Made by a program: the position numbers and the translations under genes
Notes under the pieces: generated by a model
The model's database searches: none
Told to the model about the DNA's origin: nothing
Seen by the model: the letters and a program-made list of their open reading frames with translations, nothing else
IMG/VR virus record: IMGVR_UViG_3300032046_000015
Location: 1-64,000 of that record
Strand: one strand, 5' to 3'
Length of the DNA stretch: 64,000 nucleotides
Origin: a virus
Shown: positions 33,280-62,069 of the stretch, piece by piece
Layout of the letters: every line of letters begins with the position of its first letter
Numbering within the stretch: position 1 is the first letter of the stretch

Positions 33280-33973
33280 TCAATACCTTTTGAACTTGAG
33301 ACTTGGATTGAAGTGTTCGTGTACACATCCTTGATCGCAACAACCTTCTGTACACAGTGGAACATCCTCATCCTTGCCTTTAATCCCAAGCATTTCTTTG
33401 GCTATGGCCTTGATCTCATCGATGGTAAAGATGGTGAAGTGTTGCATCCCTGCTTCCTGTATTGCCATGTCGCCACCCTCTCCACGGTCAACTACAGATA
33501 GAACAGCGACAGGCTTGTTGCCTTCTGCGTGCTTCTTCAGTGCGTCTGCTGCTCGCAGGACAGATGAAGCTGTAGTTATCACATCTTCTACCAACACCAC
33601 ATTATCCTTGGGATAGACTGTACCTTCAATCAACTTGCCTGTGCCATGTTCCTTCTGTTGTTTCCGCACAATGAACCCACGCAAAGGATAACTGTAATGC
33701 CCAGCCAATTGTAGCAGAGCACCGATGATTGGATCAGCACCCAGTGTCAATCCGCCCACAGCTTCAACATGAAGTTGTCCTATCAACGGCATCATCATGA
33801 GTGCTATACAATGTGCCCCTTCTGATCGCAACGTGACCAAGCGCAAGTCAATGTAGTAATCGGATTCACGACCTGACGACAGAGTGAAACTTGCCTTCTC
33901 TGTAGGAATGGGCAACAATCAACTTGCCCAATTGCTGCTTGGCAAAGTTGTTATGGTTGATTTTGTTTGCCAT
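33280..33973 (-). CDS. pyrE: orotate phosphoribosyltransferase, interrupted by a +1 frameshift near 33888
   Basis: FTLSSGRESDYYID, RKQQKEHGTGKLIEG and VEDVITT PRPP motifs; the native-looking N-terminus (..AHSYREGK) lies in another frame starting at 33973. Confidence 0.85.
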
Positions 33974-34193: not shown

Positions 34194-34544
34194 TTATGCG
34201 AGTGGATCTGCCATCCCACGGCTCATGTTTTCACGCTCCACAATCAACGTGTGTAATATCAACAGATAGTTGACTGCGTCAGCTATGCGTGATTTGATTG
34301 GTTCAGACTTGACTGCTCTGTCGTTGAGCCATGTTTCTATGGCATCCATGTGCTTGCCAAAATAGATAGCCCAGACATCAATCTCATCAATGCCTCTCTT
34401 GTGTAATCGCTTGGCACCTGTTTTGAAGTTGGAGTTGGCATCATTGCTTCCCTGTGTATAGTCATGCCCCTTTGTATCCAGCAACGGCAAACACTCCTCT
34501 TCAAAAAATTTCTTGATCAACTCAATCCTTTTATTTGGTTCCAT
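34194..34544 (-). CDS. all-alpha NTP pyrophosphatase-like / nucleotide-modification-associated domain 1 (DUF1599-like)
   Basis: KGHDY..NF..KH..RIADAVNY motif pattern. Confidence 0.65.
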   Translation of the reverse strand: MEPNKRIELIKKFFEEECLPLLDTKGHDYTQGSNDANSNFKTGAKRLHKRGIDEIDVWAIYFGKHMDAIETWLNDRAVKSEPIKSRIADAVNYLLILHTLIVERENMSRGMADPLA

Positions 34545-35410
34545 CGTTGGGCCACTCCTCTCAATTGCTCTTTGCCTTTGTTTTCCAAGTCACGCACCTT
34601 TGTCCATATCTTTGTGTTGATCTGCGCTGTTATCTCTCTCTCAACTAGATCAACCAAGACATGTGGATCAAGTGCGTCCAACTCCCATGACTCTGTTCCA
34701 AACTGTTTAACGTATGTTTCAAACCTTGAATCGCTTGTTTTGGCAGGATTGGGTGGTGGACTGTATTGTAGTATCTGATCCCATGATAGTGCCAGCCTTC
34801 TGACTTCCACGTCAGCCCCAAACAAAGCAAATCTATCAGTGATGTCTCTGGTCATGTCCAAACCGGATGGATCATGGTCACCCAAGTAAAGCAATATCCC
34901 ATATTTGCCTTCAAGTGTAGTTGCCATGAATCGTTGTGCTGCCTGCCACATCTCTGATTGCGATACATAACCACGACAAGAAAAGTATGGGACATCGTAT
35001 TGGTTGCAAATTCCTTCTATCACTCCAATCAAGGCATCCTTCTCAATCCACACTTCCATGTGTACCATCTGTGTCTTCCACTTGTCCATTCTGAACTGTT
35101 CAGCGCACACATTAACTATGTCTTGTGGACTATCCCAATGAGATAGACTGCGGACAAATCTGCTTCTATCCTCAATGGCCAACCAGTCAATCTCTCCAGC
35201 TAGTCTGGCATCATTGATCACTCCACCCAGTCTGTTGTAATATATCTGTCTGTTTGGTATTAGACCACGTGCTACAAATTGATAATACAATTGTCTCAAA
35301 GTCAGAGTGAAGCCAGACTTGCTGTACTCATCGATGATATCATTGGCTGTTCTGATTATCGCAAGATTGTCTTTTGAGAAATTTCTTTCAATGTATTTTA
35401 GTCTGGGCAC
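34517..35410 (-). CDS. Topo VI-A/Spo11-like Toprim-domain protein
   Basis: TLRQLYYQ winged helix, EVWIEKDAL, YLGDHDPSG and WELDAL motifs. Confidence 0.8.
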   Translation of the reverse strand: MPRLKYIERNFSKDNLAIIRTANDIIDEYSKSGFTLTLRQLYYQFVARGLIPNRQIYYNRLGGVINDARLAGEIDWLAIEDRSRFVRSLSHWDSPQDIVNVCAEQFRMDKWKTQMVHMEVWIEKDALIGVIEGICNQYDVPYFSCRGYVSQSEMWQAAQRFMATTLEGKYGILLYLGDHDPSGLDMTRDITDRFALFGADVEVRRLALSWDQILQYSPPPNPAKTSDSRFETYVKQFGTESWELDALDPHVLVDLVEREITAQINTKIWTKVRDLENKGKEQLRGVAQRWNQIKGLS

Positions 35411-38299: not shown

Positions 38300-38803
38300 T
38301 TAACTCTTGGCCAATCCTTCCAAGTCAAAAGACATTTGATCAGTTGCCTTGATACGCCAGTCAATAACATCCTCAGGTTCAAATATCAAATCATTCACCC
38401 TTAATTCCTTGGGTGTTGACTTGGTGCTTGCTTGTATGACGCACCTGATTATACCTGTGTTAATTATGATGCGGACGCACCACTCACATATGTGTGTGTA
38501 TCCGTACATATAAAGTGTAGCACCCATAGCACGTTCACGTCCTGCATGTAGACAAGCATTTGTCTCAGCATGAACTGAACGACATTTGAGATAATCGCTG
38601 CCGTGTGGTATGTTGTTATCCTCTCTGAAGCATTTGCCTATCTTCAAGCAATCCAACCGTTTGCGTGGAGCACCGTTGTAGCCAGTTGAAATGATCTGAT
38701 CATCCTTGACTACAACAGCACCCACTTGCCCTCTCAAGCACTTGGCATTTGAGCCCACTTCCCTGGCAATGCGCAAATAGTATTTGTCCTTGTCTGAAAT
38801 CAT
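38300..38803 (-). CDS. dCMP deaminase
   Basis: CLRGQVGAVVV, STGYNGAP, HAETNA and CxxC zinc motifs. Confidence 0.92.
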   Translation of the reverse strand: MISDKDKYYLRIAREVGSNAKCLRGQVGAVVVKDDQIISTGYNGAPRKRLDCLKIGKCFREDNNIPHGSDYLKCRSVHAETNACLHAGRERAMGATLYMYGYTHICEWCVRIIINTGIIRCVIQASTKSTPKELRVNDLIFEPEDVIDWRIKATDQMSFDLEGLAKS

Positions 38804-39189
38804 GGTTTGCCATCCATCTGTTTATCACCTGGACGTTTGACAGGTCTGTGTTTATTGAACTCCAACTTGGACGCCACTGCTGTGGCCAAATCTATGTCCA
38901 AATGCGCTGATATGTCGCAAGTGCGAATGATCACGTTGGCTAACTTGGCCGCCAGTGCGTCCATATCGTTTATGTAGATGGCCTCAATCGCTTTGCCAAC
39001 TTCACTGGCCAACTTAGCCAGCCAACTCATGATCAACCGCATCTTGCCTTGGGTTATGTGTTGATACTCCACATCGGCTTGGTGCCAACCTTTGCCCTCT
39101 GAAGTTGCGTATGCTTCCTGGCAAACCTTTGATATGGTCAGATTGTGTGGAGTATCAACATCATCTGTCTTGAGGTAGTTGCGCTTCAC
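38800..39189 (-). CDS. MazG-like NTP pyrophosphohydrolase (acidic residues degenerate)
   Basis: KGW..SEVGKAIEA..KLANVIIR..KLEFNKHRP pattern. Confidence 0.65.
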   Translation of the reverse strand: MKRNYLKTDDVDTPHNLTISKVCQEAYATSEGKGWHQADVEYQHITQGKMRLIMSWLAKLASEVGKAIEAIYINDMDALAAKLANVIIRTCDISAHLDIDLATAVASKLEFNKHRPVKRPGDKQMDGKP

Positions 39190-41825: not shown

Positions 41826-42015
41826 ATTTACGCAAATCCCTCTTGTGTACTATCATGGGCAATTCCAGTTTACTCCAATCAACATCGTGAATCAAATACA
41901 CCTTATCACGACTGATCAACTTGGCAGGATTGCTTGATATTAACACAACATACTTGTTTGGTTTACCTTTAAGTTTGTGTTCTCTCATGAATGCTTTGAT
42001 CACTGTCACCGACAT
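41767..42015 (-). CDS. hypothetical protein
   Basis: Operon-coupled ORF. Confidence 0.45.
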   Translation of the reverse strand: MSVTVIKAFMREHKLKGKPNKYVVLISSNPAKLISRDKVYLIHDVDWSKLELPMIVHKRDLRKYVSPVQARLFWRYDGPTRN

Positions 42016-42620
42016 GGTACACCTGTCCTGGCTATTTCCAAAGCCTTTAACAGATCAACTACAAACTGCCCTTCATAAGTATCTGCCTCACGTCCTTGTT
42101 TCCTTAACAGATAAGCAGGATGCCATGTTGATACTGCTTTATATATGTGTCCAGTTATGGATACTGTACTCACCCTGCCCCTTATGACAGACATGTTATC
42201 ATCCACACCTAACACATAGAATGCCGATATGCGTCCAAGCGTCACTATGGCTTTAGGAGACACAGCATTGATCTGCCTTACCAAACGTTGACGGCATGAC
42301 GCACCCCAATTCAAATCTTGTATTTTGTTATCTGGTGGACGGCACATCAAAACGTTTGTTATGTAGGATTGTTCCAAGTCAACTCCTGCTGTATCTGCCA
42401 AACGTTCTAACATAGCACCAGCCCTGCCCACAAACGGAACACCCTGTCTGTCTTCATTTGCTCCTGGTGCCTCTCCTATAAACATGATCTCAGGATTGAT
42501 GCGCCCCTTCCCAAAAACAACATTCTGTCTAGTCTTATGTAACTCACACAGTGTACAAGACTTGTACTTCTCTTGTATCCTCAGTATGCTAGGCATGTGT
42601 TGCCTCCATACTGTTTTCAT
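42006..42620 (-). CDS. uracil-DNA glycosylase, family 4
   Basis: CTLCELH, GEAPGANED..PFVGRAG, NVLMCRPP and HPAYLLR motifs. Confidence 0.92.
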   Translation of the reverse strand: MKTVWRQHMPSILRIQEKYKSCTLCELHKTRQNVVFGKGRINPEIMFIGEAPGANEDRQGVPFVGRAGAMLERLADTAGVDLEQSYITNVLMCRPPDNKIQDLNWGASCRQRLVRQINAVSPKAIVTLGRISAFYVLGVDDNMSVIRGRVSTVSITGHIYKAVSTWHPAYLLRKQGREADTYEGQFVVDLLKALEIARTGVPCR

Positions 42621-50629: not shown

Positions 50630-53600
50630 TTATATGGCCTTGCGCCATGAATACTGTCTCAATATTTCTACATGCGACCTGTCTTCTAATACCAGGCCAC
50701 CCCTCTCATGCTTAATATCAAACACTGCCACATTGCCCAACACTATCTGTTCTTTGAACTTTAGATAACTGCTGGCAAAGCAAACAGCAGTAAACACACG
50801 GTCAATTGTATCAATGCTAAAGAATGCCATGCCACGTCCATTCTTGTCAATTGTGTGTCGGGCATCTAGGATTAAGCCAGTCATTTCAAATATGTCGTGG
50901 CCTTTTTTCTTCACAGACTTATTGGTACCAACAGCCTTGGACACAGGATGCTCAATGAAATACTGTTCCCAAAATGTCATTGGCTCACCTGTTATTATCT
51001 TGTGTCTTAATATGTCAAGATTGACAACCATATGAGCCTTCAAACTTTTCCATGTACCATGAGTGGATGCGTGTACCCTTAACACAACAGGAGTGCCCAC
51101 GCCATCATCAATGACCTCTCTGAAAATTGGAAATGCATCTATATCCAACTTCACTCTGTTCCATACTCCTGTGGCATCTTCCACATTGAAGTTAGAGTAT
51201 CTAGCACCCCATCTCATCTTTAATCGCTCTTGTTCTGATGGCAATTCTTTGGCACTATAAAAATCACCCACGCAATTATATCTGACATCAATGATTTGTC
51301 CATTCAGATACACAGCACGATTGGTCTTGAATAAATCTGGGTCATCCATGCTAATGAACTTAACATGCTTGCCCAAGCCTTTCAACACATCTCCATATGC
51401 CTCCATTGGGTGTTTACCTAATGGCAATGGACTGACTTCAGCTGCCAGCAGAGCAAAATCTGTTTGGTTATAATCTGGTTCCATTTTACTCTTGGTCAAG
51501 CACTCCTCTATGGCTGTCCAATTGCCCTTGTTAGCCATGGCAAATATGTCCTGTTCGTGCTCCAAGAAATACTTGACATTGGGCAATAGATCAGATAGAG
51601 CACCAGCCTTTGACAGTGCCAATAGTGTTGTTCTCTTTACAAGCCGTCTGTCAACCTTCTGTAACATATCAACCAGTGAAGTATATGGTTGATATTTCAC
51701 AATCTCTTTGATTGAACTTTCACCGACACCTTTTATATCCAATAAACTACATCTAATTTGATTGCCCACAATCGTGAAATTCACTCCTGAATGGTTGGTA
51801 TCTGGCCCAAGCACATCTATTCCTTTTGCTCTTGTCTCTTTTATGAACCTTGTGACCTCTTGTCTGTCTGGTTCATTCTTCAACACTGCCCACATGAACT
51901 CCATAGGATAATGTACCTTCAAAAACATTGTCCAATAAGCAATCACCCCATAAGCGCATGAGTGAGACTTGTTGAATGCGTATGATCCAAAGAATGTAAT
52001 GCCGTCCATTAGTTTATTGGCTTCACCTTCATCCATACCTTTGGACACAGCCCCCACAACAAACCTGTCACGCTCTTTTCCAAGCTTCTCATCACCGTGT
52101 TTCTTTGCCACTAGTTTGCGCAATGAGTCTGCTGTCTCAGGTTCATAGCCAGACAACTCAATAAATATCCTTGTCAGTTGTTCTTGATATACTAACACAC
52201 CGTATGTCTCTTCACATATCTTATCATATATGGGATGGATTGGCTTGATCTTTGTTGGATCATTTTTCCGGTCAATGTAAACGTTTGCCAAGCCACTTCT
52301 CATTGTGCCAGGCCTGTTCAACGCTGTCAATGCTGCCACGTCAGCAAATTGCGTGAATGTTATTTCTTCACACGTCTTGTACATTGATGTAGTGTCAAAT
52401 TGGAAAATGCCAGCAAAATCTAAGTCAGTGAAACCTTGTAACACCTTGGGATCATCCAATGGCAATCGCTCCATATCTATGTCCAGATGGTGTCTATCCT
52501 TGATTGCTGTCAAGGTATCTTTAATGACAGTGAGTGTTCTTAATCCAAGCACATCCAACTTCAACAATCCCATGTCTTCACAACCCCAGAAATTTATTGC
52601 CGCAACCCTAACACGTCTGCCACCTTCATCCTTGGTCTCAATTGGCACAACGTCACATATCGGCACAGGCGATGTCAACACGCCAGCGGCATGTATTCCT
52701 GTCTGTCTGACTTGTCCTTCCAATTCCTTGACAATAGGTAACACATAAGGATAATGGTCATTGAATTTTCTACAAACATCAAATTCCTTGAAACTGTCCT
52801 CAATAGTTTGACTGGCACGCTCATCACCTGAACTCCTCTCTACAATACTGCTGGTGACTGCGTTCACTTCAGTTAGTGGCACATCTAACACACGGCACAC
52901 ATCCTTCAAACATAACTTACCTTTCATAGTAACAGCTGTTCCTATCTGGGAGACATTGCCTATGCCATATTTATCACACAAATGTTGTAATATAAGACCA
53001 CGCTTGCTGTCTTCAAAATCCATATCAATATCCGGCATATCTATTCTGGCTGGAGACATGAACCTTTCAAACAATAATCCATGTTCTATCGGATCAAGTG
53101 ACGTTATGCCCAATAAGTAACACACAAGTGAACCAGCACTGGAACCACGTCCAGGCCCAACCATGATTCCTTCTTGTCTTGCCCAACCAAATAACTCATG
53201 AACCAGAATAAAATATCCACTGAATTTCTGTCTCTTCATGGCAGCTAACTCAAGCAATAAACGTTCTGTGTACGTTTTTCTGTGCTGGACTGGATCAATG
53301 CCTAATTTGGCAGCCTTTTGCTCTATCTGATAATCCATATCACGCCACGGCCAACCGTCCAAGCATAATTGGTGTAGATACACATCGTGTGCTTCTGAGT
53401 CTGATGACGTTGTGTCCTTAATGTTCTGAGGTATGACTACAGGTGGAAGCAAACATTTGAACTTATCCATTACAACTTTGGCCTTACATTTCTCAGCAAT
53501 CTCCATAGTATTACACATAGCATCAGTAATATCTGAACCACTAATGTCATGCTTGGACAGACTTTCCACCATTTCCTTGGGTGTCTTGAACCAAAACTCT

Positions 53601-54397
53601 TGAGTGTCGAATTTGAATCTGTTCGGATTTGTCATCCTATCGTTTGTCTGGATACATAACAAAATTTCTTGATGTTGAGCATTCTCCTGGCGTATATAGT
53701 GGCAATCATTGGTGGCCACCATCTTAATGTTTAGAGCATGGGCAATCTTGACTAAATGCGGTGTCACTCTTAATTGATCTGGAAAAGTGTGAGGCATTAT
53801 CTCTATGTAAAAATCATCCCCAAAATTATCCTTCCACCACATGGCCTCATCGATGGCATCTATTGAATGGCCTTCCAAAATCAGAGATGGTATGTGCCCA
53901 GCTACACAAGCACTGGTAACAACAATTCCATCCTTATATTCCAACAGTGACTGTTTGTCTATCCTTGGCCTGTGATAGAATCCATCCACCCAAGCCTTGC
54001 TTGATAACCTGAACAGATTCTTTAATCCATCATTATTCTTGGCAAACGCACACAAATGCCACCGTGGCCTTATCCCCAAACGTTTTTCCACTTCAAATAT
54101 AGCGTGCTTTTGCTGTGCTTTTGCTGTCTCATCTATGATTTTGGCTTTCATGTCATCAGGCAAACTTTTAACCTTCATGTCAGAGGACATGTAAAACTCT
54201 ATGCCGTATATGGGTGTCATTCCTTCAATACTTTTACAGGTGATTGCCAGATCATAAAATGATCGCATTGAACCATGCTCTGTAACAGCAAAATGTTTGA
54301 GTCCTATTTCTTTGGCATATTGGACATACTTGGACACACTTCCGCAACCATCCAATAAGCTGTATTCTGTGTGCGTATGTAGGTGTACAAAATCCAT
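50630..54397 (-). CDS. dnaE: DNA polymerase III alpha subunit
   Basis: FVHLHTHTEYSLLDG PHP domain, GPGRGSSAGS, PDIDMDF, HAAG, KLDVLGL and YAFNKSHS motifs. Confidence 0.97.
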   Translation of the reverse strand: MDFVHLHTHTEYSLLDGCGSVSKYVQYAKEIGLKHFAVTEHGSMRSFYDLAITCKSIEGMTPIYGIEFYMSSDMKVKSLPDDMKAKIIDETAKAQQKHAIFEVEKRLGIRPRWHLCAFAKNNDGLKNLFRLSSKAWVDGFYHRPRIDKQSLLEYKDGIVVTSACVAGHIPSLILEGHSIDAIDEAMWWKDNFGDDFYIEIMPHTFPDQLRVTPHLVKIAHALNIKMVATNDCHYIRQENAQHQEILLCIQTNDRMTNPNRFKFDTQEFWFKTPKEMVESLSKHDISGSDITDAMCNTMEIAEKCKAKVVMDKFKCLLPPVVIPQNIKDTTSSDSEAHDVYLHQLCLDGWPWRDMDYQIEQKAAKLGIDPVQHRKTYTERLLLELAAMKRQKFSGYFILVHELFGWARQEGIMVGPGRGSSAGSLVCYLLGITSLDPIEHGLLFERFMSPARIDMPDIDMDFEDSKRGLILQHLCDKYGIGNVSQIGTAVTMKGKLCLKDVCRVLDVPLTEVNAVTSSIVERSSGDERASQTIEDSFKEFDVCRKFNDHYPYVLPIVKELEGQVRQTGIHAAGVLTSPVPICDVVPIETKDEGGRRVRVAAINFWGCEDMGLLKLDVLGLRTLTVIKDTLTAIKDRHHLDIDMERLPLDDPKVLQGFTDLDFAGIFQFDTTSMYKTCEEITFTQFADVAALTALNRPGTMRSGLANVYIDRKNDPTKIKPIHPIYDKICEETYGVLVYQEQLTRIFIELSGYEPETADSLRKLVAKKHGDEKLGKERDRFVVGAVSKGMDEGEANKLMDGITFFGSYAFNKSHSCAYGVIAYWTMFLKVHYPMEFMWAVLKNEPDRQEVTRFIKETRAKGIDVLGPDTNHSGVNFTIVGNQIRCSLLDIKGVGESSIKEIVKYQPYTSLVDMLQKVDRRLVKRTTLLALSKAGALSDLLPNVKYFLEHEQDIFAMANKGNWTAIEECLTKSKMEPDYNQTDFALLAAEVSPLPLGKHPMEAYGDVLKGLGKHVKFISMDDPDLFKTNRAVYLNGQIIDVRYNCVGDFYSAKELPSEQERLKMRWGARYSNFNVEDATGVWNRVKLDIDAFPIFREVIDDGVGTPVVLRVHASTHGTWKSLKAHMVVNLDILRHKIITGEPMTFWEQYFIEHPVSKAVGTNKSVKKKGHDIFEMTGLILDARHTIDKNGRGMAFFSIDTIDRVFTAVCFASSYLKFKEQIVLGNVAVFDIKHERGGLVLEDRSHVEILRQYSWRKAI

Positions 54398-54412: not shown

Positions 54413-55540
54413 TTAGAATGGTGGTGGAATATAGTTGTTGGCACTCTTCAATAATGATAGTTGGTGACTAACAACCCGCTTCAAGTATTCAGGCAGACTG
54501 GTAGTCAACATCCAGTCCATATATTGCTTGCCTCTATCTGACTTCACTATTTCAGATAATTTTTGACCTTTGAATTTTCCAAATTCCAAACGGGCATCCT
54601 TGCCGTCAGGATCAATGATGAAATTACTTTTGGCAGCTAACTTATCTGCTGCCACACGTGTATCAGTTTTGATTTTGTTTGCTGCTTGAGCAAATGTTCC
54701 TTTTGATTGCTTTTCACTCCTCTCATATACCCATATATCTACACAACCAGTTTGGAGTGAAGCCATTATTCTGATGGCTATCTTTTGGTTGCTCATATCA
54801 TAACACTTGGATACTTCCTGTAATACCACACCAAGAACATCTACATTTCTGTGGTGTAATAACACATCTTTATCAAGTCCAACTATTTTCTTCAAAGGCA
54901 TTCCAACAGATTTGCCAAATTCGTACACAAGCGGTTGGAATGATACATCATAAACATCTCTGGCCGCATCAAATTCAAATTTGATTTCACCATTCGCTAT
55001 TTGCGCTGTAGTGAACCCATGCGACATGATCTGTTCAACGATTATAGTCTCAAGATCATTCCTTGATTGTACAACTACCAGATTGGTAATAGTAAAGAAC
55101 ACAGGTTCAGCGGCCATGATTCTGTCCTTGACCTCTCCTCTGTGTTCAGGTTCAACATCAGGCGGCATGTTTACATATTCTCTTTTGAAGTCTATCCTTG
55201 CCGGATCAATGCCAAGATATTTTCCATCTCCAACGTACACACCATCATGATCTGCTGTAGGAGTTGTGTTGATTGGCTGGTTTGGTTCTTTGTGTGTTTC
55301 TTCAACAGGTATCTTGGACTTGTCTATCTGAAAGGATAGTCCGCACTCAGTACAGGTATAATTGGTGCTGCCCACTGAGCCATACACCCTTTGCATTGTT
55401 GCTCCACAAGCTGGACACTTGAAACGGTTTGAGTTGATCCATTCCACTTCCAGTTTATTGCCCTTCTTGACCAGACCTTCTAATTGCCATCGCTTTCTGG
55501 CTGATTCCAAGCTCACCATGTCCAATTCCTTTTGATCCAA
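54413..55540 (-). CDS. hypothetical protein with Zn-ribbon and C-terminal DUF3820-like domain
   Basis: CPAC..CTEC; FGKFKGQKLSEI..YMDWM. Confidence 0.6.
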   Translation of the reverse strand: MDQKELDMVSLESARKRWQLEGLVKKGNKLEVEWINSNRFKCPACGATMQRVYGSVGSTNYTCTECGLSFQIDKSKIPVEETHKEPNQPINTTPTADHDGVYVGDGKYLGIDPARIDFKREYVNMPPDVEPEHRGEVKDRIMAAEPVFFTITNLVVVQSRNDLETIIVEQIMSHGFTTAQIANGEIKFEFDAARDVYDVSFQPLVYEFGKSVGMPLKKIVGLDKDVLLHHRNVDVLGVVLQEVSKCYDMSNQKIAIRIMASLQTGCVDIWVYERSEKQSKGTFAQAANKIKTDTRVAADKLAAKSNFIIDPDGKDARLEFGKFKGQKLSEIVKSDRGKQYMDWMLTTSLPEYLKRVVSHQLSLLKSANNYIPPPF

Positions 55541-56079
55541 TGAAATACCTGCTTAAAGGTATCATCCTTGGTCGTGTGTGTAGTATCTATTCTCATTTTT
55601 GGAAATTGTATCCTTGTAAATATCTTATGTCCAAGCCTGGTCATCTTGTTATATTGTTGTAAATTGATTGGAATTGTTCCGTTGATTCTATCCTTGGCAG
55701 CTTGATATTCGCATTCCATCCATATTATCACAGCTTTTGCCTGTAACATATTAGAATGCCATAAATTAAACAGAAAATTCCAATCACATTTCAAATCCTG
55801 TATTGTACCATACATAATTCCAGATGGCAATGACCTGTCCAGTATAACATCGGTTGGAGCCATTCTCAAGAAATCACTAGCATACACATCTTCATGAAAA
55901 GTATTGATAGCAATTCCATTGGCTTGTAATTGTACAGGATCAACACAAAATTCTTTGCTCTGATCAGGTGATACTCTGAAAGCCTTGTAGATAGGAACAC
56001 ACAACTCTTGCGACAGTCTCAAGGCAACATGAGACTTACCAGCGCCATTCAAACCTTCCAGAATAATAACAGGCATCAC
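55513..56079 (-). CDS. dNMP / thymidylate kinase-like protein
   Basis: ILEGLNGAGKS P-loop; LDRSLPS..YG. Confidence 0.8.
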   Translation of the reverse strand: MMPVIILEGLNGAGKSHVALRLSQELCVPIYKAFRVSPDQSKEFCVDPVQLQANGIAINTFHEDVYASDFLRMAPTDVILDRSLPSGIMYGTIQDLKCDWNFLFNLWHSNMLQAKAVIIWMECEYQAAKDRINGTIPINLQQYNKMTRLGHKIFTRIQFPKMRIDTTHTTKDDTFKQVFHWIKRNWTW

Positions 56080-57266
56080 ACCCTCATTGTCTCTGCCACA
56101 GCTTCTTTGAACCTTATTAAGCCTGTGTTAATACTTGACAAATCAACATCCAGGTGAGGATAGACACGCATGCGTGTTGATCTAAAACATCCGCATATGA
56201 GTCCATGACGCATAGCCACCTCACCAAATTTCTTAGCATCCAAACCTGGTGTGTCTAGGCACAGCATCAGACCAGTCCACCTGACCTCTCCTAAAACACC
56301 CTTGAACTCTCCTCTTGATAATTGCTCAAACTCTGCCGCCAAATAATCGCCCAACAAATTGATGCGTGTGAAAACATTTGGTTCAGACAACTCATCCAGT
56401 ACCTTGTGTGCTAGTAAACATGCTATGTTGTTACCACCAAATGTACTGAATTGGCTGCCAGGAGTAAGCACACAGAATGGTTCTATGGCTAGTGTGGCAC
56501 CTATGGGTAATCCTGCGGCCAGTCCTTTAGCAAAGCACATGATATCAGGTTGGACACCATATAAATGTGCCGCTGACCAATCGCCACAACGTCCATGTCC
56601 TGATTGAACTTCATCAAATATCAATGGAATGTTGTGTTTAGCACACATATACCTGATGTGCTTCAACTCCTGTACATCTGGCAAACGCACATCGCTGTTG
56701 TCGTATATGGGGGTGATCATGACTGCTTGAGCATTGTAAAACTCAATATCATTCACTGTGTCGAATGCCATGAATCCAGACAACTCAGGAGCAAAACCAT
56801 TGTGGTGATATGGTGTAATTTCTTGGTTGATTGATGCTGACAAGGCACCATATGTTCTGCCATGAAATGAATTCTTGCGCACCCATATCGTATCACGGCC
56901 AGGTGATCCTTTATCATGATTGTATTTTCTGGCTAGTTTTATGGCAGTCTCAACAGCCCCAGTCCCATCATTGCTGAAAAATACTTGGTCCATCTTGTGT
57001 ATGTTACACAAACGTTCAGCCAATGTCTCTCTTGGTTCAGAATAGAACACGTGGGGTATGTGTACAGGTGGTTGTTTGGTTGCCATGATATCGCACAACC
57101 ACTGAGTAGCCTTGCTAAAACTATTGACGCCTGTGTCGCAATACCAGTCAATCACGTTGTTGTATGTTACGTTTGTGACCATATCGTGCGCCACAGTTTT
57201 TGGATTGCGTGATATTATCTCAAAAGGATAATGGACAACTGTGTCCATGATTCTACTTGGTTTCAT
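56076..57266 (-). CDS. class III PLP aminotransferase (ArgD-like, divergent)
   Basis: SFHGRT, FDEVQSG.GR.G, PDIMCFAKGL and STFGGN motifs. Confidence 0.9.
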   Translation of the reverse strand: MKPSRIMDTVVHYPFEIISRNPKTVAHDMVTNVTYNNVIDWYCDTGVNSFSKATQWLCDIMATKQPPVHIPHVFYSEPRETLAERLCNIHKMDQVFFSNDGTGAVETAIKLARKYNHDKGSPGRDTIWVRKNSFHGRTYGALSASINQEITPYHHNGFAPELSGFMAFDTVNDIEFYNAQAVMITPIYDNSDVRLPDVQELKHIRYMCAKHNIPLIFDEVQSGHGRCGDWSAAHLYGVQPDIMCFAKGLAAGLPIGATLAIEPFCVLTPGSQFSTFGGNNIACLLAHKVLDELSEPNVFTRINLLGDYLAAEFEQLSRGEFKGVLGEVRWTGLMLCLDTPGLDAKKFGEVAMRHGLICGCFRSTRMRVYPHLDVDLSSINTGLIRFKEAVAETMRV

Positions 57267-58212
57267 TGTTGTTTATCCTCTTGCCTGTCCATACATCCCT
57301 GCCCCAGAATGATTGATAATCTTCATGGCGTTGAGTTGTGAAACTCCTATATGTTTCAACTGGTGGACGTTGTTGATACAGTTCATAATGTTGGAACAAT
57401 GGGCACATTGGCATGTTGTCCTCTCCTGATACACGCCTTTCATTCTCATGAATGAAGTGACAACCGTTATATGTGTCACCTTCCATACATGGTGGACTTG
57501 CCATTTCATAAAACACTGGATGGACTTTGGTGGCCGTTTCAGACACAATTCCTTGGATGATTGGCCCCCACAATCCCAACTGCAGTATCCAACATGATCT
57601 CTTGCCGATTATGTGGAGCATGCTGTTGATGTTCATCGTCCATGATATTCTGTGTTGCGCTCCAAGTGGCATCAAATCACGGGCATCTTCCATTGGCACT
57701 CCAGCATCAACCAAATCCTTGTACAGCTTTTGAATCTCTCTCATAGCAATGTGGTATGCGTTGTGTAGGATTGGGTTGCTATGTTGAAGTGCTTTGATTG
57801 TGTCGGCAACACGATATGCGCCATCATCAGCAAAGTGTTCCATGGATAGTATCCGCATAGATTGACTCCACCAGCTTGAATCTGCTTGGTTGGGCACTAT
57901 GTCCATTCCTATCCTATCATCATGTTTGTGGCCTATTCTGTGTCTGACTGCTTGTTCACGCCAGCTAACACTCACCCCTTCCATCATGAATGTGAAATAT
58001 ATGGATTCACTGACAGGTATCTTTTGCGCCACCACTTTTCTGAATAAGTCAATCAACCCACCGCTGCCCATGTGATCGTCAGGATCACGTGCGCCTTGAG
58101 CAACTTGCTCAGGAGTGATCAACTGGTTGTTGGTTTTGCTTGCCCACCATATGCTGTATAAGGTTTCAAGCGGCAACCTTGTCCATGATATTAGTGTCAC
58201 TTTTGGTTCCAT
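57253..58212 (-). CDS. thyX: flavin-dependent thymidylate synthase (ThyX)-like protein
   Basis: EQAVRHR...SQSMR, GVPMEDARDLMP and R.C motifs. Confidence 0.8.
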   Translation of the reverse strand: MEPKVTLISWTRLPLETLYSIWWASKTNNQLITPEQVAQGARDPDDHMGSGGLIDLFRKVVAQKIPVSESIYFTFMMEGVSVSWREQAVRHRIGHKHDDRIGMDIVPNQADSSWWSQSMRILSMEHFADDGAYRVADTIKALQHSNPILHNAYHIAMREIQKLYKDLVDAGVPMEDARDLMPLGAQHRISWTMNINSMLHIIGKRSCWILQLGLWGPIIQGIVSETATKVHPVFYEMASPPCMEGDTYNGCHFIHENERRVSGEDNMPMCPLFQHYELYQQRPPVETYRSFTTQRHEDYQSFWGRDVWTGKRINNNETK

Positions 58213-58225
58213 AGATTTTTGCGCC

Positions 58226-59119
58226 TCACTTTTCTTGTTTATTTATTGGCAGCAATTGTGCTATTGCTTTTAACACAGCTGGCCAATTATGTACAATCAC
58301 TACTTTGCCCATAAAAGGCTCAAAGGAATGGATGTTGGATTCACTACCATTGTACCATACCACACCCAAACCCATCTTGCTCAAATCATGAACATGCTTG
58401 AAGGAATTTTCAACCACGCACACTCTATCTAGCTTCAATCTGGACAATGCCTCACACTTGTCCCTCTCCCATAAAATGAAATCAACAACTATATTGTGTT
58501 GCTTCAACCACGTCAGTGTGTCTGTATATATTGTGTTAATTAAGTGTGCTGGTCTGGCTGTTAGTATCCCAACCTGATATCCCAATTCTCTTAAATGCTG
58601 TATTCCGTTGACAGCGCCATCAATAGTAGGCAACAAGCCATAACCACCTACCATCCTAAAGTCATGTTTGGCATCCTCATGATCTTTATGAGTGGGGTTG
58701 TCTATCCTTCTGGCTTGTAGCCACTGCGCTTCATAGGCAGCAAATCCGGTGGCATAATCAGCCACTACATCATCCATGTCTAGCACAATTATCTTATGTG
58801 GGCTTGTTATATCGGATAACCACCTGACGTCAACCAAATCAGACTTGGCATAAAATGCTTCAGCAAACTCCTCTGGTTCTATGCCTAAGCAAATCATTAA
58901 AGCCAGCAGGTGCTTGTAAACGTCCACGCACTCTATCAAAGCCTGTCTCCTATCTGCTTGGTTGTCCCGCACATTCTGTTTCAACAACCCCAAAGCCTTC
59001 TTGATCTCCACTGCCTCTTCATGCAATCCGTGTATGTGCTCCAAGAGTGCTTGAGATAAATCTACAACAGGCCAGTGTCGTTGTTGAATTTTCTGACGTT
59101 CCCACATTTCTTTAAGCAT
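58226..59119 (-). CDS. all-alpha dUTPase/MazG-like domain fused to HAD 5'(3')-deoxyribonucleotidase
   Basis: EEAVE..ECVDV..K in the N-terminal half; LDMDDVVAD and LTAR in the C-terminal half. Confidence 0.75.
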   Translation of the reverse strand: MLKEMWERQKIQQRHWPVVDLSQALLEHIHGLHEEAVEIKKALGLLKQNVRDNQADRRQALIECVDVYKHLLALMICLGIEPEEFAEAFYAKSDLVDVRWLSDITSPHKIIVLDMDDVVADYATGFAAYEAQWLQARRIDNPTHKDHEDAKHDFRMVGGYGLLPTIDGAVNGIQHLRELGYQVGILTARPAHLINTIYTDTLTWLKQHNIVVDFILWERDKCEALSRLKLDRVCVVENSFKHVHDLSKMGLGVVWYNGSESNIHSFEPFMGKVVIVHNWPAVLKAIAQLLPINKQEK

Positions 59120-60087
59120 ACATGCTCCACAAAGTCAGATAGTTTGTCCATGATCTTGTCGACAGTTTCACGTGGATTCCAGGAAGCAAATCTGCCCACT
59201 GGTAACACATTAATAGGATAGTTCAATTTTTCAGTCAATGGATATATGTGTCCAGGCAATGTTGCTCTGACACGTCCCAATCTAGCATCCTTGATTGTTT
59301 TTTGGATGATTGTTATAGCCTTAATCCAATCTGGTTCTGTCACTCCAGTGATCTCAGCCATCCATACTTTCTGTTCGCAATCGCTGGTTGATATGCGATG
59401 TGGTCCACCATTCTCAGGAAAATACACATACTTATAGCGCCAGAACATTCTGGAGTGTGTGTGTGTATCTGCTATGTGTACTTTATTACACATAGTGTTA
59501 GGCATATGCCAAGCTGCCACTCTCCTAAACAACCAAAGTGGCAAACTGGTCACTACATAATCGAATGTGTCCACTGTATCATCATCCATATCTATGGACA
59601 CTCCTGTTTGTATCAAACTGAGTTCAACAACTTTGGCTAAATGAATGTTGATGTTTTTTCTGGCACGCTGTACAAAAGTATTAAAATCAATATCAATAAT
59701 TTTTTCCTGCCCTGAGGCAGCATTCATACAAGTATTTGCGTATCCATCCATGGTTCCTCTTGTTTTCAAAAAATGAGCTTGCTGAATCTTTTCTGTTACC
59801 TCACTCAATGGAATGATGTGCTCCTTCCACCATACTGCCCCTTCCACTTCATCAACAAAAAAAGGCACCTTCAATTGAGCCAAAAGTTGCTCCAATTGAG
59901 GGTGCCATTTCAATAATTTCAATCCACCTGATTGCCATGAACCGCCAATCTCTTCTGATATCAGCGTCACATCCAATCCTTGGTTGACTAAATAGTTTGC
60001 TGAAACAAGCCCAAGAATGCCACCACCTAACACAGCGACCTTGGCTGTGTTAGATGGTGTAGTTTGTGTGCGAGTATAGTGTATCAT
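59062..60087 (-). CDS. FAD-dependent oxidoreductase (UDP-Galp mutase/HemY-like fold)
   Basis: VLGGGILG Rossmann motif, EIGG and GRFASW. Confidence 0.8.
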   Translation of the reverse strand: MIHYTRTQTTPSNTAKVAVLGGGILGLVSANYLVNQGLDVTLISEEIGGSWQSGGLKLLKWHPQLEQLLAQLKVPFFVDEVEGAVWWKEHIIPLSEVTEKIQQAHFLKTRGTMDGYANTCMNAASGQEKIIDIDFNTFVQRARKNINIHLAKVVELSLIQTGVSIDMDDDTVDTFDYVVTSLPLWLFRRVAAWHMPNTMCNKVHIADTHTHSRMFWRYKYVYFPENGGPHRISTSDCEQKVWMAEITGVTEPDWIKAITIIQKTIKDARLGRVRATLPGHIYPLTEKLNYPINVLPVGRFASWNPRETVDKIMDKLSDFVEHVCLKKCGNVRKFNNDTGLL

Positions 60088-60104: not shown

Positions 60105-60134
60105 GGGATGAGGCCAACTTGTGGCCTCATTCCC
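60105..60134. other. intergenic hairpin
   Basis: ATGAGGCCA/TGGCCTCAT stem immediately after the stop of the sigma-like ORF; no T-run. Confidence 0.5.
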
Positions 60135-60135
60135 T

Positions 60136-61965
60136 TTACACGTGGATGACACCGTCTGTGTTCAGTTTCTGTATAGCCTTGACCACGCCATCGGTATTGG
60201 CCTCAACCACGCCCATGAGTCTGGCCTTGAACGCTCCATCAAACGCTGTGTCCTTGATGTCTGTCTTGAATGGTACAGCCTTTTGAGCGATATTTGTGTC
60301 TGGACATGGCAACCCCACATCGATGTTTCCGGTGCGTGGTTTGATATAAAGGATAGCCAGACCTTGCTCCCTGCCTGTAGTCTTATGGCAGTACATGGTC
60401 AGGTATCCAGAACCACCACCGCCCAATGGCGTCTTGTCGATGATGTAAAAATCGCCATCATTCTGTGCCGCTGCTTTGTCCATTAACGTCTTGCTGAACG
60501 CTGCCGCTATCTTGTGGGCCAGAGTCATGGCCAAGAGTCTGGACGGATTGTTAGGATCAAGCATGCCCGATATGACCTTGGGTTTTGGTTCTGCCTTGGC
60601 CTTGGGAGCAGCCTTCTTTGTCTCCTCTCCTGCTGGTTCTGTCGCTGGCTCAGAAGCATCCGCAGGGGCTGGTTTTTCTTTGGCCTTGGTATCCGATTGA
60701 GGCTTGGCTGTTGCTTTGGCAGCTTTGGGTTTTTCCTTGGCAGCTTTGGGCTTGCTTTTGTCCGGTTTGGCCTTGGCATCTGCTGTTTCCGCAGGAGTTT
60801 CAGTTGATGTGTCCGCTTTGGGTGCTTCCGCTGGCGCTGGCGTTGGTGTGTCCGCTTTGGGTGCTTCCTGTTTAGCCTTCTTGCCTTTGGACTTGCCACC
60901 CTTCTTCATCAACTCAGTTCCCTTCTGAAGCAGTGCGATGATTCCATCCTCTCCTGCTGTTGCGGCTGTTTTGACGATGTTAGTCCATTCGCCACCCTCA
61001 GCTTCTGCCACCGCTCTGGCGGCATCAGCTATAGGTTTGCACTCATCACGTTTGGCACATGGTTCCTTTTCCTTTTCCTGTTTGGCTGATGGGTTGCCAT
61101 CGCACTCTGCGAGTCCAACCTCATAAAAGCCAACGCATCCACCACTTCCCTGTTCATCCTTCTGTTCGTCTGACATGTCGTCACCTCCAGTTAAAATTTG
61201 GCCAACCAAAGATTGGCTTGTCAATACACAAGATTTTTCGCCTGTGTCCTTATTATTTGATGTTGTAGCTAAAAGTATCATTTTGGCCTTGATCCTTTTT
61301 AAGCTGCTTTTAATTTGTCCAGTTGTTGCTCCTATCTTTTGAGATAGATAACTGATCACCTGAAAACTGCGAGTCAACACTTCTGCCAAATCCCGCAAGT
61401 CTTGTGGTGGATTCAGAACCATCTGTAGCACCTTCCTGTCTATAGGTTTGTCCAAAGATTCAAACAAACGTTGCCTATTCATTTTGGACACACGATTATG
61501 TTCCAAATCCATCAATATGGTTTCTGGTGTATTTCTGTGTACAAGCCAACAATCCTCTCTCTTATGGGCATGGTGGCCTAATGCCAATGGCTCCTCTGCC
61601 AACCATTGTTCTGGACTTGGATACACAGAATGTGGGCTCAATTGTACTTTGTTGGTTTCGCTGTCTATATAATGTGGATTGCGCTTTTGTGCGAAGTGAT
61701 ATGATATAATCATGGGCGCCACATTATTCAGAGATTGGTAGAAATATGTGCTAAATTTGACACCTTTGTTGGGATCAAATTTCACCATAGCAGCCATAAG
61801 AGTCATCCTGAACATCTGTTCAATATCTGCCACATCCTCTCCTATCTTGAATGATAGTTGTATGGCCTTCTTGTGTATGAGTGGTGCTACACCATTCAAC
61901 ACCGTCTCAAACTTTTTTCTCACTTCATCCGGACAAGTGAAATTGTCTGGTACCAATTTGATCAT
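60136..61965 (-). CDS. sigma-70-like factor fused in frame to a Cys/PAK-rich protein (internal start at 61176)
   Basis: KFDPNKGVKFSTY region-2 motif and a region-4-like HTH; GGAGGTGA RBS before the internal MSDEQK. Confidence 0.7.
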   Translation of the reverse strand: MIKLVPDNFTCPDEVRKKFETVLNGVAPLIHKKAIQLSFKIGEDVADIEQMFRMTLMAAMVKFDPNKGVKFSTYFYQSLNNVAPMIISYHFAQKRNPHYIDSETNKVQLSPHSVYPSPEQWLAEEPLALGHHAHKREDCWLVHRNTPETILMDLEHNRVSKMNRQRLFESLDKPIDRKVLQMVLNPPQDLRDLAEVLTRSFQVISYLSQKIGATTGQIKSSLKRIKAKMILLATTSNNKDTGEKSCVLTSQSLVGQILTGGDDMSDEQKDEQGSGGCVGFYEVGLAECDGNPSAKQEKEKEPCAKRDECKPIADAARAVAEAEGGEWTNIVKTAATAGEDGIIALLQKGTELMKKGGKSKGKKAKQEAPKADTPTPAPAEAPKADTSTETPAETADAKAKPDKSKPKAAKEKPKAAKATAKPQSDTKAKEKPAPADASEPATEPAGEETKKAAPKAKAEPKPKVISGMLDPNNPSRLLAMTLAHKIAAAFSKTLMDKAAAQNDGDFYIIDKTPLGGGGSGYLTMYCHKTTGREQGLAILYIKPRTGNIDVGLPCPDTNIAQKAVPFKTDIKDTAFDGAFKARLMGVVEANTDGVVKAIQKLNTDGVIHV

Positions 61966-62069
61966 AATTTGCCATCCTTTCATAAGTGTGCTTGGCCCCA
62001 CCACTCCAAGCACGTGTCCCGTTGGACATGACCTTGTGTCCAACTACCATTGGCTGGAAGACTTTGATC

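Follow-up and report, generated by a model that had tools for sequence, protein, structure and literature searches.

The IMG/VR record IMGVR_UViG_3300032046_000015 is a complete phage genome of 83,016 bp with direct terminal repeats, assembled from a sediment metagenome. The stretch of DNA analysed here, referred to below as the window, consists of its first 64 kb (positions 1 to 64,000). The sequence was found in three public sediment-metagenome runs, one of which contains the whole stretch, and no RNA run is listed for it. On the minus strand at positions 55513-60087, the window encodes a block of five genes for a flavoprotein, a fusion of a nucleoside triphosphate (NTP) pyrophosphatase and a HAD phosphatase, a long-form ThyX, a class III aminotransferase and a P-loop kinase. 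It is quite possible, if short of probable, that the block makes a non-canonical deoxyuridine (dU) nucleotide, modified at C5, for incorporation into the phage DNA. Such a nucleotide would replace some or all of the thymidine, and its side chain would probably carry an amino group.

The five genes belong to a longer run on the minus strand, which begins with a gene for a sigma-like protein, continues with the flavoprotein, the NTP pyrophosphatase-HAD fusion, ThyX, the aminotransferase and the kinase, and ends with an open reading frame (ORF) of 375 amino acids and dnaE (Table 1). Along this run, adjacent genes overlap by 4-58 nt or are separated by gaps of 13-18 nt, and within the block itself neighbours overlap by 4 to 58 nt or stand 13 nt apart. 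The original prediction, made from the DNA sequence alone, had placed five overlapping or abutting genes one ORF upstream of dnaE, and all of them were recovered there. Its family assignments were upheld by searches against Pfam, PHROGs and NCBIfam, with two labels refined as described below. The gene context of relatives was taken from IMG/VR loci only. Scans for promoters and terminators inside the block gave signals at chance level only.

Table 1. Positions of the block genes, their neighbours and other genes discussed in the text.
Gene product	Length (aa)	Position	Strand	Remarks
Sigma-like protein	635	60136-62043	minus	
Flavoprotein	341 from ATG (351 from possible TTG start at 60117)	59062-60087	minus	N-terminal match to flavin adenine dinucleotide (FAD) Rossmann fold
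Fusion of MazG-like NTP pyrophosphatase and 5'(3')-deoxyribonucleotidase-type HAD phosphatase	297	58226-59119	minus	HAD, E 5e-4
Long-form ThyX	319	57253-58212	minus	Pfam Thy1, E 5e-19
Divergent class III (omega-type) pyridoxal 5'-phosphate (PLP) aminotransferase	396	56076-57266	minus	Pfam Aminotran_3, E 1e-64
Tmk/YorR-like P-loop kinase	188	55513-56079	minus	GTG start (ATG one codon in); Thymidylate_kin, E 1.5e-5
ORF with zinc ribbon and ExoX-like C-terminus	375	54413-55540	minus	Between kinase and dnaE
DnaE-type DNA polymerase III alpha subunit	1255	50630-54397	minus	PHP, DNA_pol3_alpha, finger, HHH_6
Uracil-DNA glycosylase superfamily protein		42006-42620	minus	Pfam UDG, E 1e-27
Small pyrophosphatase	129	38800-39189	minus	phrog_3301 'pyrophosphatase', E 4e-12
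Deoxycytidine monophosphate (dCMP) deaminase		38300-38803	minus	Pfam dCMP_cyt_deam_1, E 2.5e-16
Protein matching phrog_6247 'DNA topoisomerase'	297	34517-35410	minus	phrog_6247, E 8e-110; no Pfam match at E 0.001
Phosphoribosyltransferase-like protein		33280-33918	minus	phrog_32468, E 1e-28

Enzymes encoded by the block

The fusion protein had been labelled as a dUTPase joined to a HAD phosphatase. The HAD part of this label stood and could be narrowed to an NT5C-type deoxyribonucleotidase, while the other part looks like an all-alpha MazG-like NTP pyrophosphatase instead. The latter spans residues 1 to ~105 and contains the motifs EExxE ... ExxD, with E35 being nearly invariant and D66 invariant. 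Its match to Pfam PRA-PH is weak (E 0.016), and so are the matches of a profile from 19 homologues to MazG-like proteins in the PDB over positions 31-109 (2q73, 2q5z, 5ie9 and YpjD; E 1.5e-4 to 2.5e-3). Residues ~108-290 form a 5'(3')-deoxyribonucleotidase-type HAD phosphatase with a DxDxV motif I and the motifs TARP, DK and ED, and both D114 and D116 are invariant in the alignment of the 19 homologues. Over positions 121-236, the same profile matched cytosolic and mitochondrial 5'(3')-deoxyribonucleotidases in the PDB (E 1.5e-7 to 3e-6), and the protein also matched phrog_2643, a 5'-3' deoxyribonucleotidase (E 1e-6). The cytosolic and mitochondrial enzymes favour deoxyuridine and thymidine monophosphate (dUMP and dTMP). 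As predicted from these matches, an NTP pyrophosphatase fused to a dU/dT-type deoxyribonucleotidase would fit the removal of canonical nucleotides, and because of this fusion a plain supply of thymidine triphosphate (dTTP) would be hard to reconcile with the block.

The ThyX protein scores 69.1 bits against the Pfam family Thy1 (PF02511), for which the gathering score is 24.8, and 61.2 bits against TIGR02170, which is under the curated equivalog cut-off of 87.9. Its AlphaFold2 model (pLDDT 80.1) was matched by Foldseek to structures of ThyX from T. maritima with a probability of 1.0 and template modelling (TM) scores of 0.59-0.69 relative to the target. To compare individual residues, an alignment of 24 homologues was combined with a HMMER alignment to the T. 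maritima chain in the PDB. The residues that bind dUMP and FAD in T. maritima, namely Q75, R78, H79, R80, S88, R90, E144, R147 and R174, correspond to Q87, R90, H91, R92, S118, R120, E175, R178 and R205 in the phage protein. All of these are invariant in the 24 homologues except R92, for which a single sequence has Lys. Other positions differ. The site of H53, which we take to lie on the folate side, is variable (K, Q, N, H, R or G) within the AQxIP segment of the long ThyX. Y91, presumably a part of the SxRY motif, is replaced by an Ile after R120 (Leu or Val in two sequences), and E86 is replaced by a Ser.

The long form also contains an insert of 18-25 amino acids, modelled as disordered, which parts the RHR motif from SxSxR, and is extended at the C-terminus by about 100 amino acids. 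Four cysteines, C207, C242, C251 and C270, are invariant in the 24 homologues and may form a zinc or iron-sulfur site; C207 is located two residues past the dUMP-binding Arg. A protein search with ThyX identified 359 proteins at E <= 0.001, and the best 120 of the 359 all show at least 45% identity over at least 96% of the query. A pattern-limited scan of 185,579 species genomes identified no relative of the long ThyX. In a maximum-likelihood tree, the long-form clade has a support of 100/99 and is placed on a long branch apart from the ordinary phage ThyX proteins. In the data searched, the long ThyX and the flavoprotein occur only in phages.

The aminotransferase matches Aminotran_3 with 219 bits, and its best matches in the PDB are ArgD, AstC and the putrescine, ornithine and gamma-aminobutyrate (GABA) aminotransferases. 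The motifs around PLP are kept in an alignment that includes ArgD from Aquifex (2eh6), among them the Schiff-base lysine K247 (AKG), FHGRT, DEVQxGxGRxG and STFGG. We rejected the possibility that it is an ArgD equivalog, as it scores 229-232 bits against the NCBIfam argD models, which have cut-offs of 372-410, and the substrate-switch motif EPxQGEGG is replaced by APVxGNNDV in its clade. The carboxylate-binding Arg of the 'RxxPPL' motif is K or R. With a profile of their own, the phage aminotransferases score 370-555 bits and cellular ArgD proteins about 350 or less. A tblastn search in 50,697 phage records gave matches of 24-35% identity, most of which represent bacterial contamination or unrelated ArgD, AstC and GabT genes. 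The close structural relatives of the aminotransferase all interconvert terminal aldehydes and primary amines, which by analogy would count in favour of an amino-bearing nucleotide.

The first enzyme of the block, called a FAD oxidoreductase in the original prediction, is indeed a FAD enzyme, and its model allowed a narrower placement. Sequence searches recognise only the N-terminal FAD Rossmann fold. The AlphaFold2 model (pLDDT 85.3) was matched by Foldseek to renalase, L-amino-acid oxidase, UDP-galactopyranose mutase (UGM) and nicotine oxidases at E 1e-13, with MnmC ranked 32nd (TM 0.47). VIA-align gave a Z-score of 23.9 to a eukaryotic UGM (rmsd 3.5, 317 aligned), 22.0 to protoporphyrinogen oxidase and about 18-19 to L-amino-acid oxidase, monoamine oxidase and renalase. 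Judging from the model, the protein is a small FAD enzyme of the amine-oxidase/protoporphyrinogen-oxidase/UGM superfamily. Despite the best fold similarity, we do not consider it to be a UGM, in which the histidine of the GGH motif is, we assume, the catalytic residue on the flavin side; the phage clade has an invariant GGL at this position. An alignment of 18 homologues revealed the clade motifs GGLKYIH, DHYRKTR, AMND, DYVYTPYTP, KGHLLPL and GRFAxWDPRxTxD. Since the basic DHYRKTR motif is kept across the clade, it suggests that the substrate is phosphorylated. The nearest Atlas clusters have viral members only, annotated as 'hypothetical protein', and tblastn gave no match to the flavoprotein among the 50,697 deposited phage records.

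The kinase matches phrog_761 (E 1e-13) in addition to the Pfam family, and scores 26.7 bits against TIGR00041, for which the cut-off is 83. Its profile matched YorR of SPbeta (E 5e-13), the full length of Tmk from Aquifex (E 6e-10) and deoxynucleoside kinases (E 6e-8) in the PDB; the function of YorR, its best match, is itself only putative. A P-loop with the sequence EGxNGxGK and a DRSxPSxxAY motif are conserved. The kinase profile also aligns with the 5-hydroxymethyl-dU (5-hmdU) DNA kinase of phage M6 (gp54; hhalign probability 93.7%, 17% identity), which represents generic P-loop similarity.

Downstream of the kinase, the 375-aa ORF has weak Pfam matches to ExoX-like_C (E 2.9e-5) and to zinc ribbons, and relatives have its 50-90 C-terminal residues at the corresponding place. 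As far as its domains and position indicate, the ORF probably encodes an accessory protein of the polymerase and has no part in the nucleotide chemistry. The four domains of DnaE were identified with E 4e-72 to 4e-17. The DnaE proteins of relatives are 41-50% identical, and almost all of these relatives have dnaE immediately downstream of the block. DnaE is presumed to be the consumer of the nucleotide product. The dCMP deaminase that the original prediction had pointed to at 38.3 kb is real. It is translationally coupled to the small pyrophosphatase, a second NTP pyrophosphatase beside that of the fusion, and from their predicted functions the two would likely provide a route from deoxycytidine triphosphate (dCTP) via dCMP to dUMP that feeds ThyX.

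The remaining genome consists of replication and structural genes. Because it encodes a protein of the uracil-DNA glycosylase superfamily, plain uracil is suggested to be kept out of the phage DNA. The window also contains the phosphoribosyltransferase-like and topoisomerase-like proteins listed in Table 1. Beyond the window, at genome positions 64833-68171 (L066:1833-5171), a CobT-like VWA protein of 682 amino acids adjoins a MoxR/CbbQ-type AAA+ ATPase with an N-terminal zinc-finger-like region, and this pair is chaperone-like.

Conservation of the block across phages

To place the block in the context of other phages, 34 loci were retrieved from IMG/VR by a ThyX alignment and scored by tblastn and family hidden Markov models (HMMs). 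About 25 of these loci have all five genes beside dnaE, and most of the others are cut short by the end of the contig. When the flavoprotein alignment was used as the query, 28 loci were retrieved, all of the same module type; four of them are new contigs, which carry the module in full or truncated. No match to the block was obtained by megablast in 50,697 phage records. Overall, the five families occur together in about 30 IMG/VR phage contigs, as the original prediction would lead one to expect, and the gene order is rearranged in six of the loci (L006, L014, L016, L019, L020 and L025). In one of these, two genes for class III aminotransferases stand in tandem and flank the kinase gene (L025:7084-9909; HMM E 5e-158 and 2e-124).

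In a distant phage, L028, in which a SNF2 helicase is encoded and dnaE is missing within 10 kb, the genes for ThyX, the aminotransferase, one ORF and the kinase are still found together. Much had been made to depend on whether the aminotransferase is syntenic with the cluster in relatives. Since synteny is kept across the about 30 contigs and in L028, the prediction is not contradicted on this point.

The long ThyX also has other neighbours. In L032, a phage with PolA, the region L032:8036-13968 encodes a long ThyX of 420 amino acids among a YfbR-like HD 5'-deoxynucleotidase, a DUF6378 protein, a nucleoside 2-deoxyribosyltransferase-like protein and the polymerase. Going by these annotations, the long ThyX clade seems to have another setting here, which differs from the block and is again one of pool editing.

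Proposed pathway and alternative explanations

By analogy, the block may be a ThyX-based counterpart of the pre-replicative replacement known from phages such as SPO1 and T4, to which oxidation by a flavoprotein and transamination have been added. In such a pathway, the dCMP deaminase and the small pyrophosphatase (38.3-39.2 kb) would raise the supply of dUMP. In the fusion, the MazG-like domain would cut dTTP and deoxyuridine triphosphate (dUTP) down to the monophosphates, and the NT5C-type HAD domain would remove dTMP as thymidine. The long ThyX would move a folate-derived methylene group to C5 of dUMP via its flavin, and release a functionalised dUMP, in the simplest case 5-hydroxymethyl-dUMP, instead of or besides dTMP. 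The flavoprotein would oxidise the side chain, for example from CH2OH to CHO, and the omega-type aminotransferase would turn the aldehyde into a primary amine, for example in 5-aminomethyl-dUMP. Finally, the Tmk-like kinase would phosphorylate the new deoxynucleoside monophosphate (dNMP), a host nucleoside diphosphate kinase would complete the triphosphate and DnaE would incorporate it. We infer all of these steps, and the oxidation and the transamination could take place in either order, on free nucleotides or on DNA. An omega-transaminase requires an aldehyde or a primary amine, and enzymes of this flavoprotein superfamily dehydrogenate C-N or activated C-H and C-C positions. The specific chain from dUMP via 5-hydroxymethyl-dUMP, 5-formyl-dUMP and 5-aminomethyl-dUMP to the triphosphate is a guess, and we regard it as improbable in this exact form. 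More broadly, the long ThyX could be a new functional branch of ThyX that releases hydroxymethyl- or aminomethyl-dUMP and, with the flavoprotein and the omega-transaminase, provides a fully pre-replicative route to an amine-bearing dU triphosphate that takes the place of thymidine in uncultured DnaE phages, which form a large clade with a global distribution. This extended version is rather doubtful.

Several observations weigh against a modified nucleotide. Because all dUMP- and FAD-binding residues of the long ThyX are kept, it may, as far as these residues tell, simply make dTMP. It is also the only thymidylate synthase in the genome; the ThyA family (PF00303) had no match in the complete genome, although it did match control genomes. 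The three loci L021, L029 and L032 encode a long ThyX without the aminotransferase and the flavoprotein. Much of the co-occurrence falls within one phage clade and may be due to common descent. Furthermore, the superfamily of the flavoprotein is known for C-N and C-C dehydrogenation more than for the oxidation of alcohols.

The remaining argument comes from the avoidance of short palindromes. The sequence CGCG is absent from the 83,016 bp of the genome, with 75 occurrences expected from a Markov model and 191 from the base composition, and it is also absent from the two closest relatives (L003 and L004). TGCA occurs 78 times in the genome versus 307-438 expected, which corresponds to a 4- to 6-fold depletion (z -25). 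In the survey of relatives (L003-L059), most loci of the clade likewise have too few TGCA sites despite their differing GC contents, and L032, LIS04 and SPbeta show no such shortage. We rejected the idea that TGnnCA palindromes are avoided in general, as TGATCA and TGGCCA occur above the mononucleotide expectation, and TGCA alone is truly depleted. The cause could be host restriction, a nuclease encoded by the clade or a constraint linked to modification. The phage DNA is exposed to restriction and is not globally restriction-proof, and the avoidance of CGCG and TGCA therefore argues against a bulky and complete replacement of thymine. A small or partial replacement is not argued against by these data.

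These points bear on an alternative in which the block serves the ordinary supply of dTTP for canonical DNA, together with unrelated auxiliary genes. Here, a genuine ThyX with a Cys-rich tail for another reductant would act with a thymidylate kinase, a dUTPase and a pool-balancing nucleotidase, and the aminotransferase and the flavoprotein would function in the amino-acid, polyamine or one-carbon metabolism of the host, for example in the demethylation of amines to formaldehyde and methylenetetrahydrofolate for ThyX. We consider this unlikely. The conserved nucleotide- and flavin-binding residues of ThyX, its score above the Thy1 gathering threshold and the lack of another thymidylate synthase in the genome are all as expected from such an operon, whereas the fused NTP pyrophosphatase and dU/dT nucleotidase would have no evident use in it. 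The occurrence of the long ThyX without the aminotransferase and the flavoprotein in some phages also agrees with it, and so does the YorR-type kinase of the SPbeta prophage, which is found there without the other parts of the block, as well as the restriction-sensitive DNA indicated by site avoidance. However, the aminotransferase and the flavoprotein lie inside a set of nucleotide genes, are co-translationally packed with them and are kept in about 30 contigs despite the shuffling of gene order. Both represent phage-specific families with altered substrate motifs, and the ThyX clade forms a long, strongly supported branch that includes an SP-15-type protein.

A second alternative, which we also hold to be unlikely, is that the side chain comes from a free amine or amino acid, which the aminotransferase and the flavoprotein produce or trim. 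One possibility is that the amine would trap an exocyclic-methylene intermediate on ThyX and the flavoprotein would do the trimming, comparable to MnmEG and MnmC acting on tRNA and to gp46 and gp47 of PaMx11 acting on DNA. In another, a diamine would be attached after replication, as in the putrescinyl-thymine of PhiW-14 or in diaminopropanyl-thymine. Putrescine, ornithine and diaminobutyrate aminotransferases are indeed among the relatives of the aminotransferase, and the flavoprotein belongs to the superfamily of polyamine and monoamine oxidases; it is, however, not of the DAO/MnmC1 type, given the low rank of MnmC among its structural matches. Flavin- and folate-dependent aminomethylation of uracil at C5 has been documented, as has the flavin-dependent trimming of glycinyl-thymine to 5-aminomethyl-dU in PaMx11 (PMC8989533), and a phage with diaminopropane-thymine depends on a class III aminotransferase step, carried out by Dat of the host, for its diamine (PMC13458397). 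Against this stand the Tmk-type DRSxPSxxAY motif of the kinase, the lack of a decarboxylase or an amino-acid ligase in the block, and the results of tblastn searches with M6 proteins, which recovered no homologue of aGPT-Pplase or 5-hmdU DNA kinase. A route to 5'-amino-5'-deoxythymidine, and hence a phosphoramidate backbone, through the nucleotidase, the flavoprotein, the transaminase and the kinase was set aside, as nothing specific speaks for it.

Comparison with known systems of base modification

Phages of the SPO1/phi-e type, which contain hydroxymethyluracil, induce a dTTPase-dUTPase, a dTMP nucleotidase, a dCMP deaminase, a dUMP hydroxymethylase and a hydroxymethyl-dUMP kinase. The original prediction had likened the gene content to classical pre-replicative base replacement, and the likeness is borne out by the presence of a putative NTP pyrophosphatase, a nucleotidase, a deaminase, a thymidylate-synthase homologue, a kinase and a polymerase. 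The Bacillus phages SPO1, SP8 and phi-e (5-hydroxymethyl-dU) and phage T4 (5-hydroxymethyl-deoxycytidine) share with this genome a parts list that comprises a pyrophosphatase for canonical triphosphates, a dNMP nucleotidase, a dCMP deaminase, a thymidylate-synthase homologue, a dNMP kinase and a polymerase of their own, and there is a candidate for each of these here. The SPO1 and T4 systems use hydroxymethylases of the ThyA family, whereas this genome has a ThyX-family protein in place of ThyA, and the flavoprotein and the PLP aminotransferase of the block have no counterpart in them. To our knowledge, all biochemically established pre-replicative replacements of pyrimidines depend on a ThyA-family enzyme.

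In Bacillus phage SP-15, 5-(4',5'-dihydroxypentyl)uracil is formed before DNA synthesis, and the divergent ThyX-like protein gp130 has been hypothesised to be a hydroxymethyl-dUMP synthase; a dTTPase of PhiW-14 is cited in the same study (PMC5977210). Listeria phage LIS04 (Thornevirus SP15) is the source of LIS04_124, the sole member of the long-form ThyX clade from a cultured phage and the best match of ThyX in cultured phages, which is 25% identical to the ThyX of the block over 96% of the query, aligns with it over 266 columns (hhalign 99.7%) and groups with the clade with a support of 100/99. It is on a very long branch, and this placement in the tree should therefore be taken with caution. 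The protein has the C-terminal extension of the long ThyX, while its RHR motif is missing, as are the four cysteines. Within 7 kb of its gene, the annotation lists no class III aminotransferase, flavoprotein or dnaE.

The amine-bearing thymines described in the studies considered here are built after replication, with a different set of enzymes. The systems of the Pseudomonas phages M6 and PaMx11, Salmonella phage ViI and Delftia phage PhiW-14 resemble the block in having amine-bearing side chains at C5 of thymine, a P-loop kinase and PLP enzymes, as well as a flavin enzyme in PaMx11. These systems start from ThyA-made 5-hmdU in DNA and require a 5-hmdU DNA kinase and the amino-acid:DNA transferase aGPT-Pplase. 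Their PLP enzymes are decarboxylases and their flavoenzyme is MnmC1/DAO-like, in contrast to the class III aminotransferase and the amine-oxidase/UGM-like flavoprotein of the block. The M6 proteins gp51 (aGPT-Pplase) and gp54 (5-hmdU DNA kinase) had no tblastn match in the genome at E 1e-3, a search that remote homologues could escape. With neither ThyA nor these enzymes found, the contrast to known amine-modified thymine systems, which the original prediction had drawn, holds. We also compared the gene order of M6 and L032. The similarity is limited to remotely related helicases and polymerases, and there is no case for an orthologous replacement of the ThyA hydroxymethylase.

The DNA of Pbunavirus carries a hypermodified thymidine for which the biosynthesis is not known (bioRxiv 10.1101/2025.03.31.646159). 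In one of these phages, Pseudomonas phage 109, genes for a 'polyamine oxidase' (109_091), ThyX (109_085), HAD_PNKP (109_083) and DnaE (109_081/082) are located together, in a region without an aminotransferase and a Tmk-like kinase. We considered this module as the closest known system and rejected it. The ThyX of phage 109 groups with ordinary ThyX proteins of Vibrio and Cronobacter phages (99/98), outside the long-form clade, its HAD protein is not detectably related to the HAD part of the fusion (hhalign 21.6%), and its oxidase aligns with the flavoprotein of the block over the N-terminal 125 columns only (90%). With these three mismatches, the Pbunavirus module is an analogue at best.

If the block makes an amine-bearing dU nucleotide, it would represent the first ThyX-based and the first transaminase-based pathway for the modification of DNA bases. 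It would provide a new biosynthetic logic for modified DNA and new enzymes for C5-functionalised deoxynucleoside triphosphates, and explain a conserved, unannotated gene block in widespread phages of soils and sediments. Sequencing of these phages, and analyses of them that rely on restriction, could also be biased by the modification. Should ThyX prove to be ordinary, a phage-specific aminotransferase and flavoprotein in a nucleotide operon would still be without a known role. The genome newly contributes a further member of the block, the placement of an SP-15-type protein in the ThyX tree, the comparison with Pbunavirus and the data on site avoidance. In the comparison with known systems, the block works like those of SPO1 and T4, and it is a member neither of these nor of the systems of M6, ViI and PaMx11.

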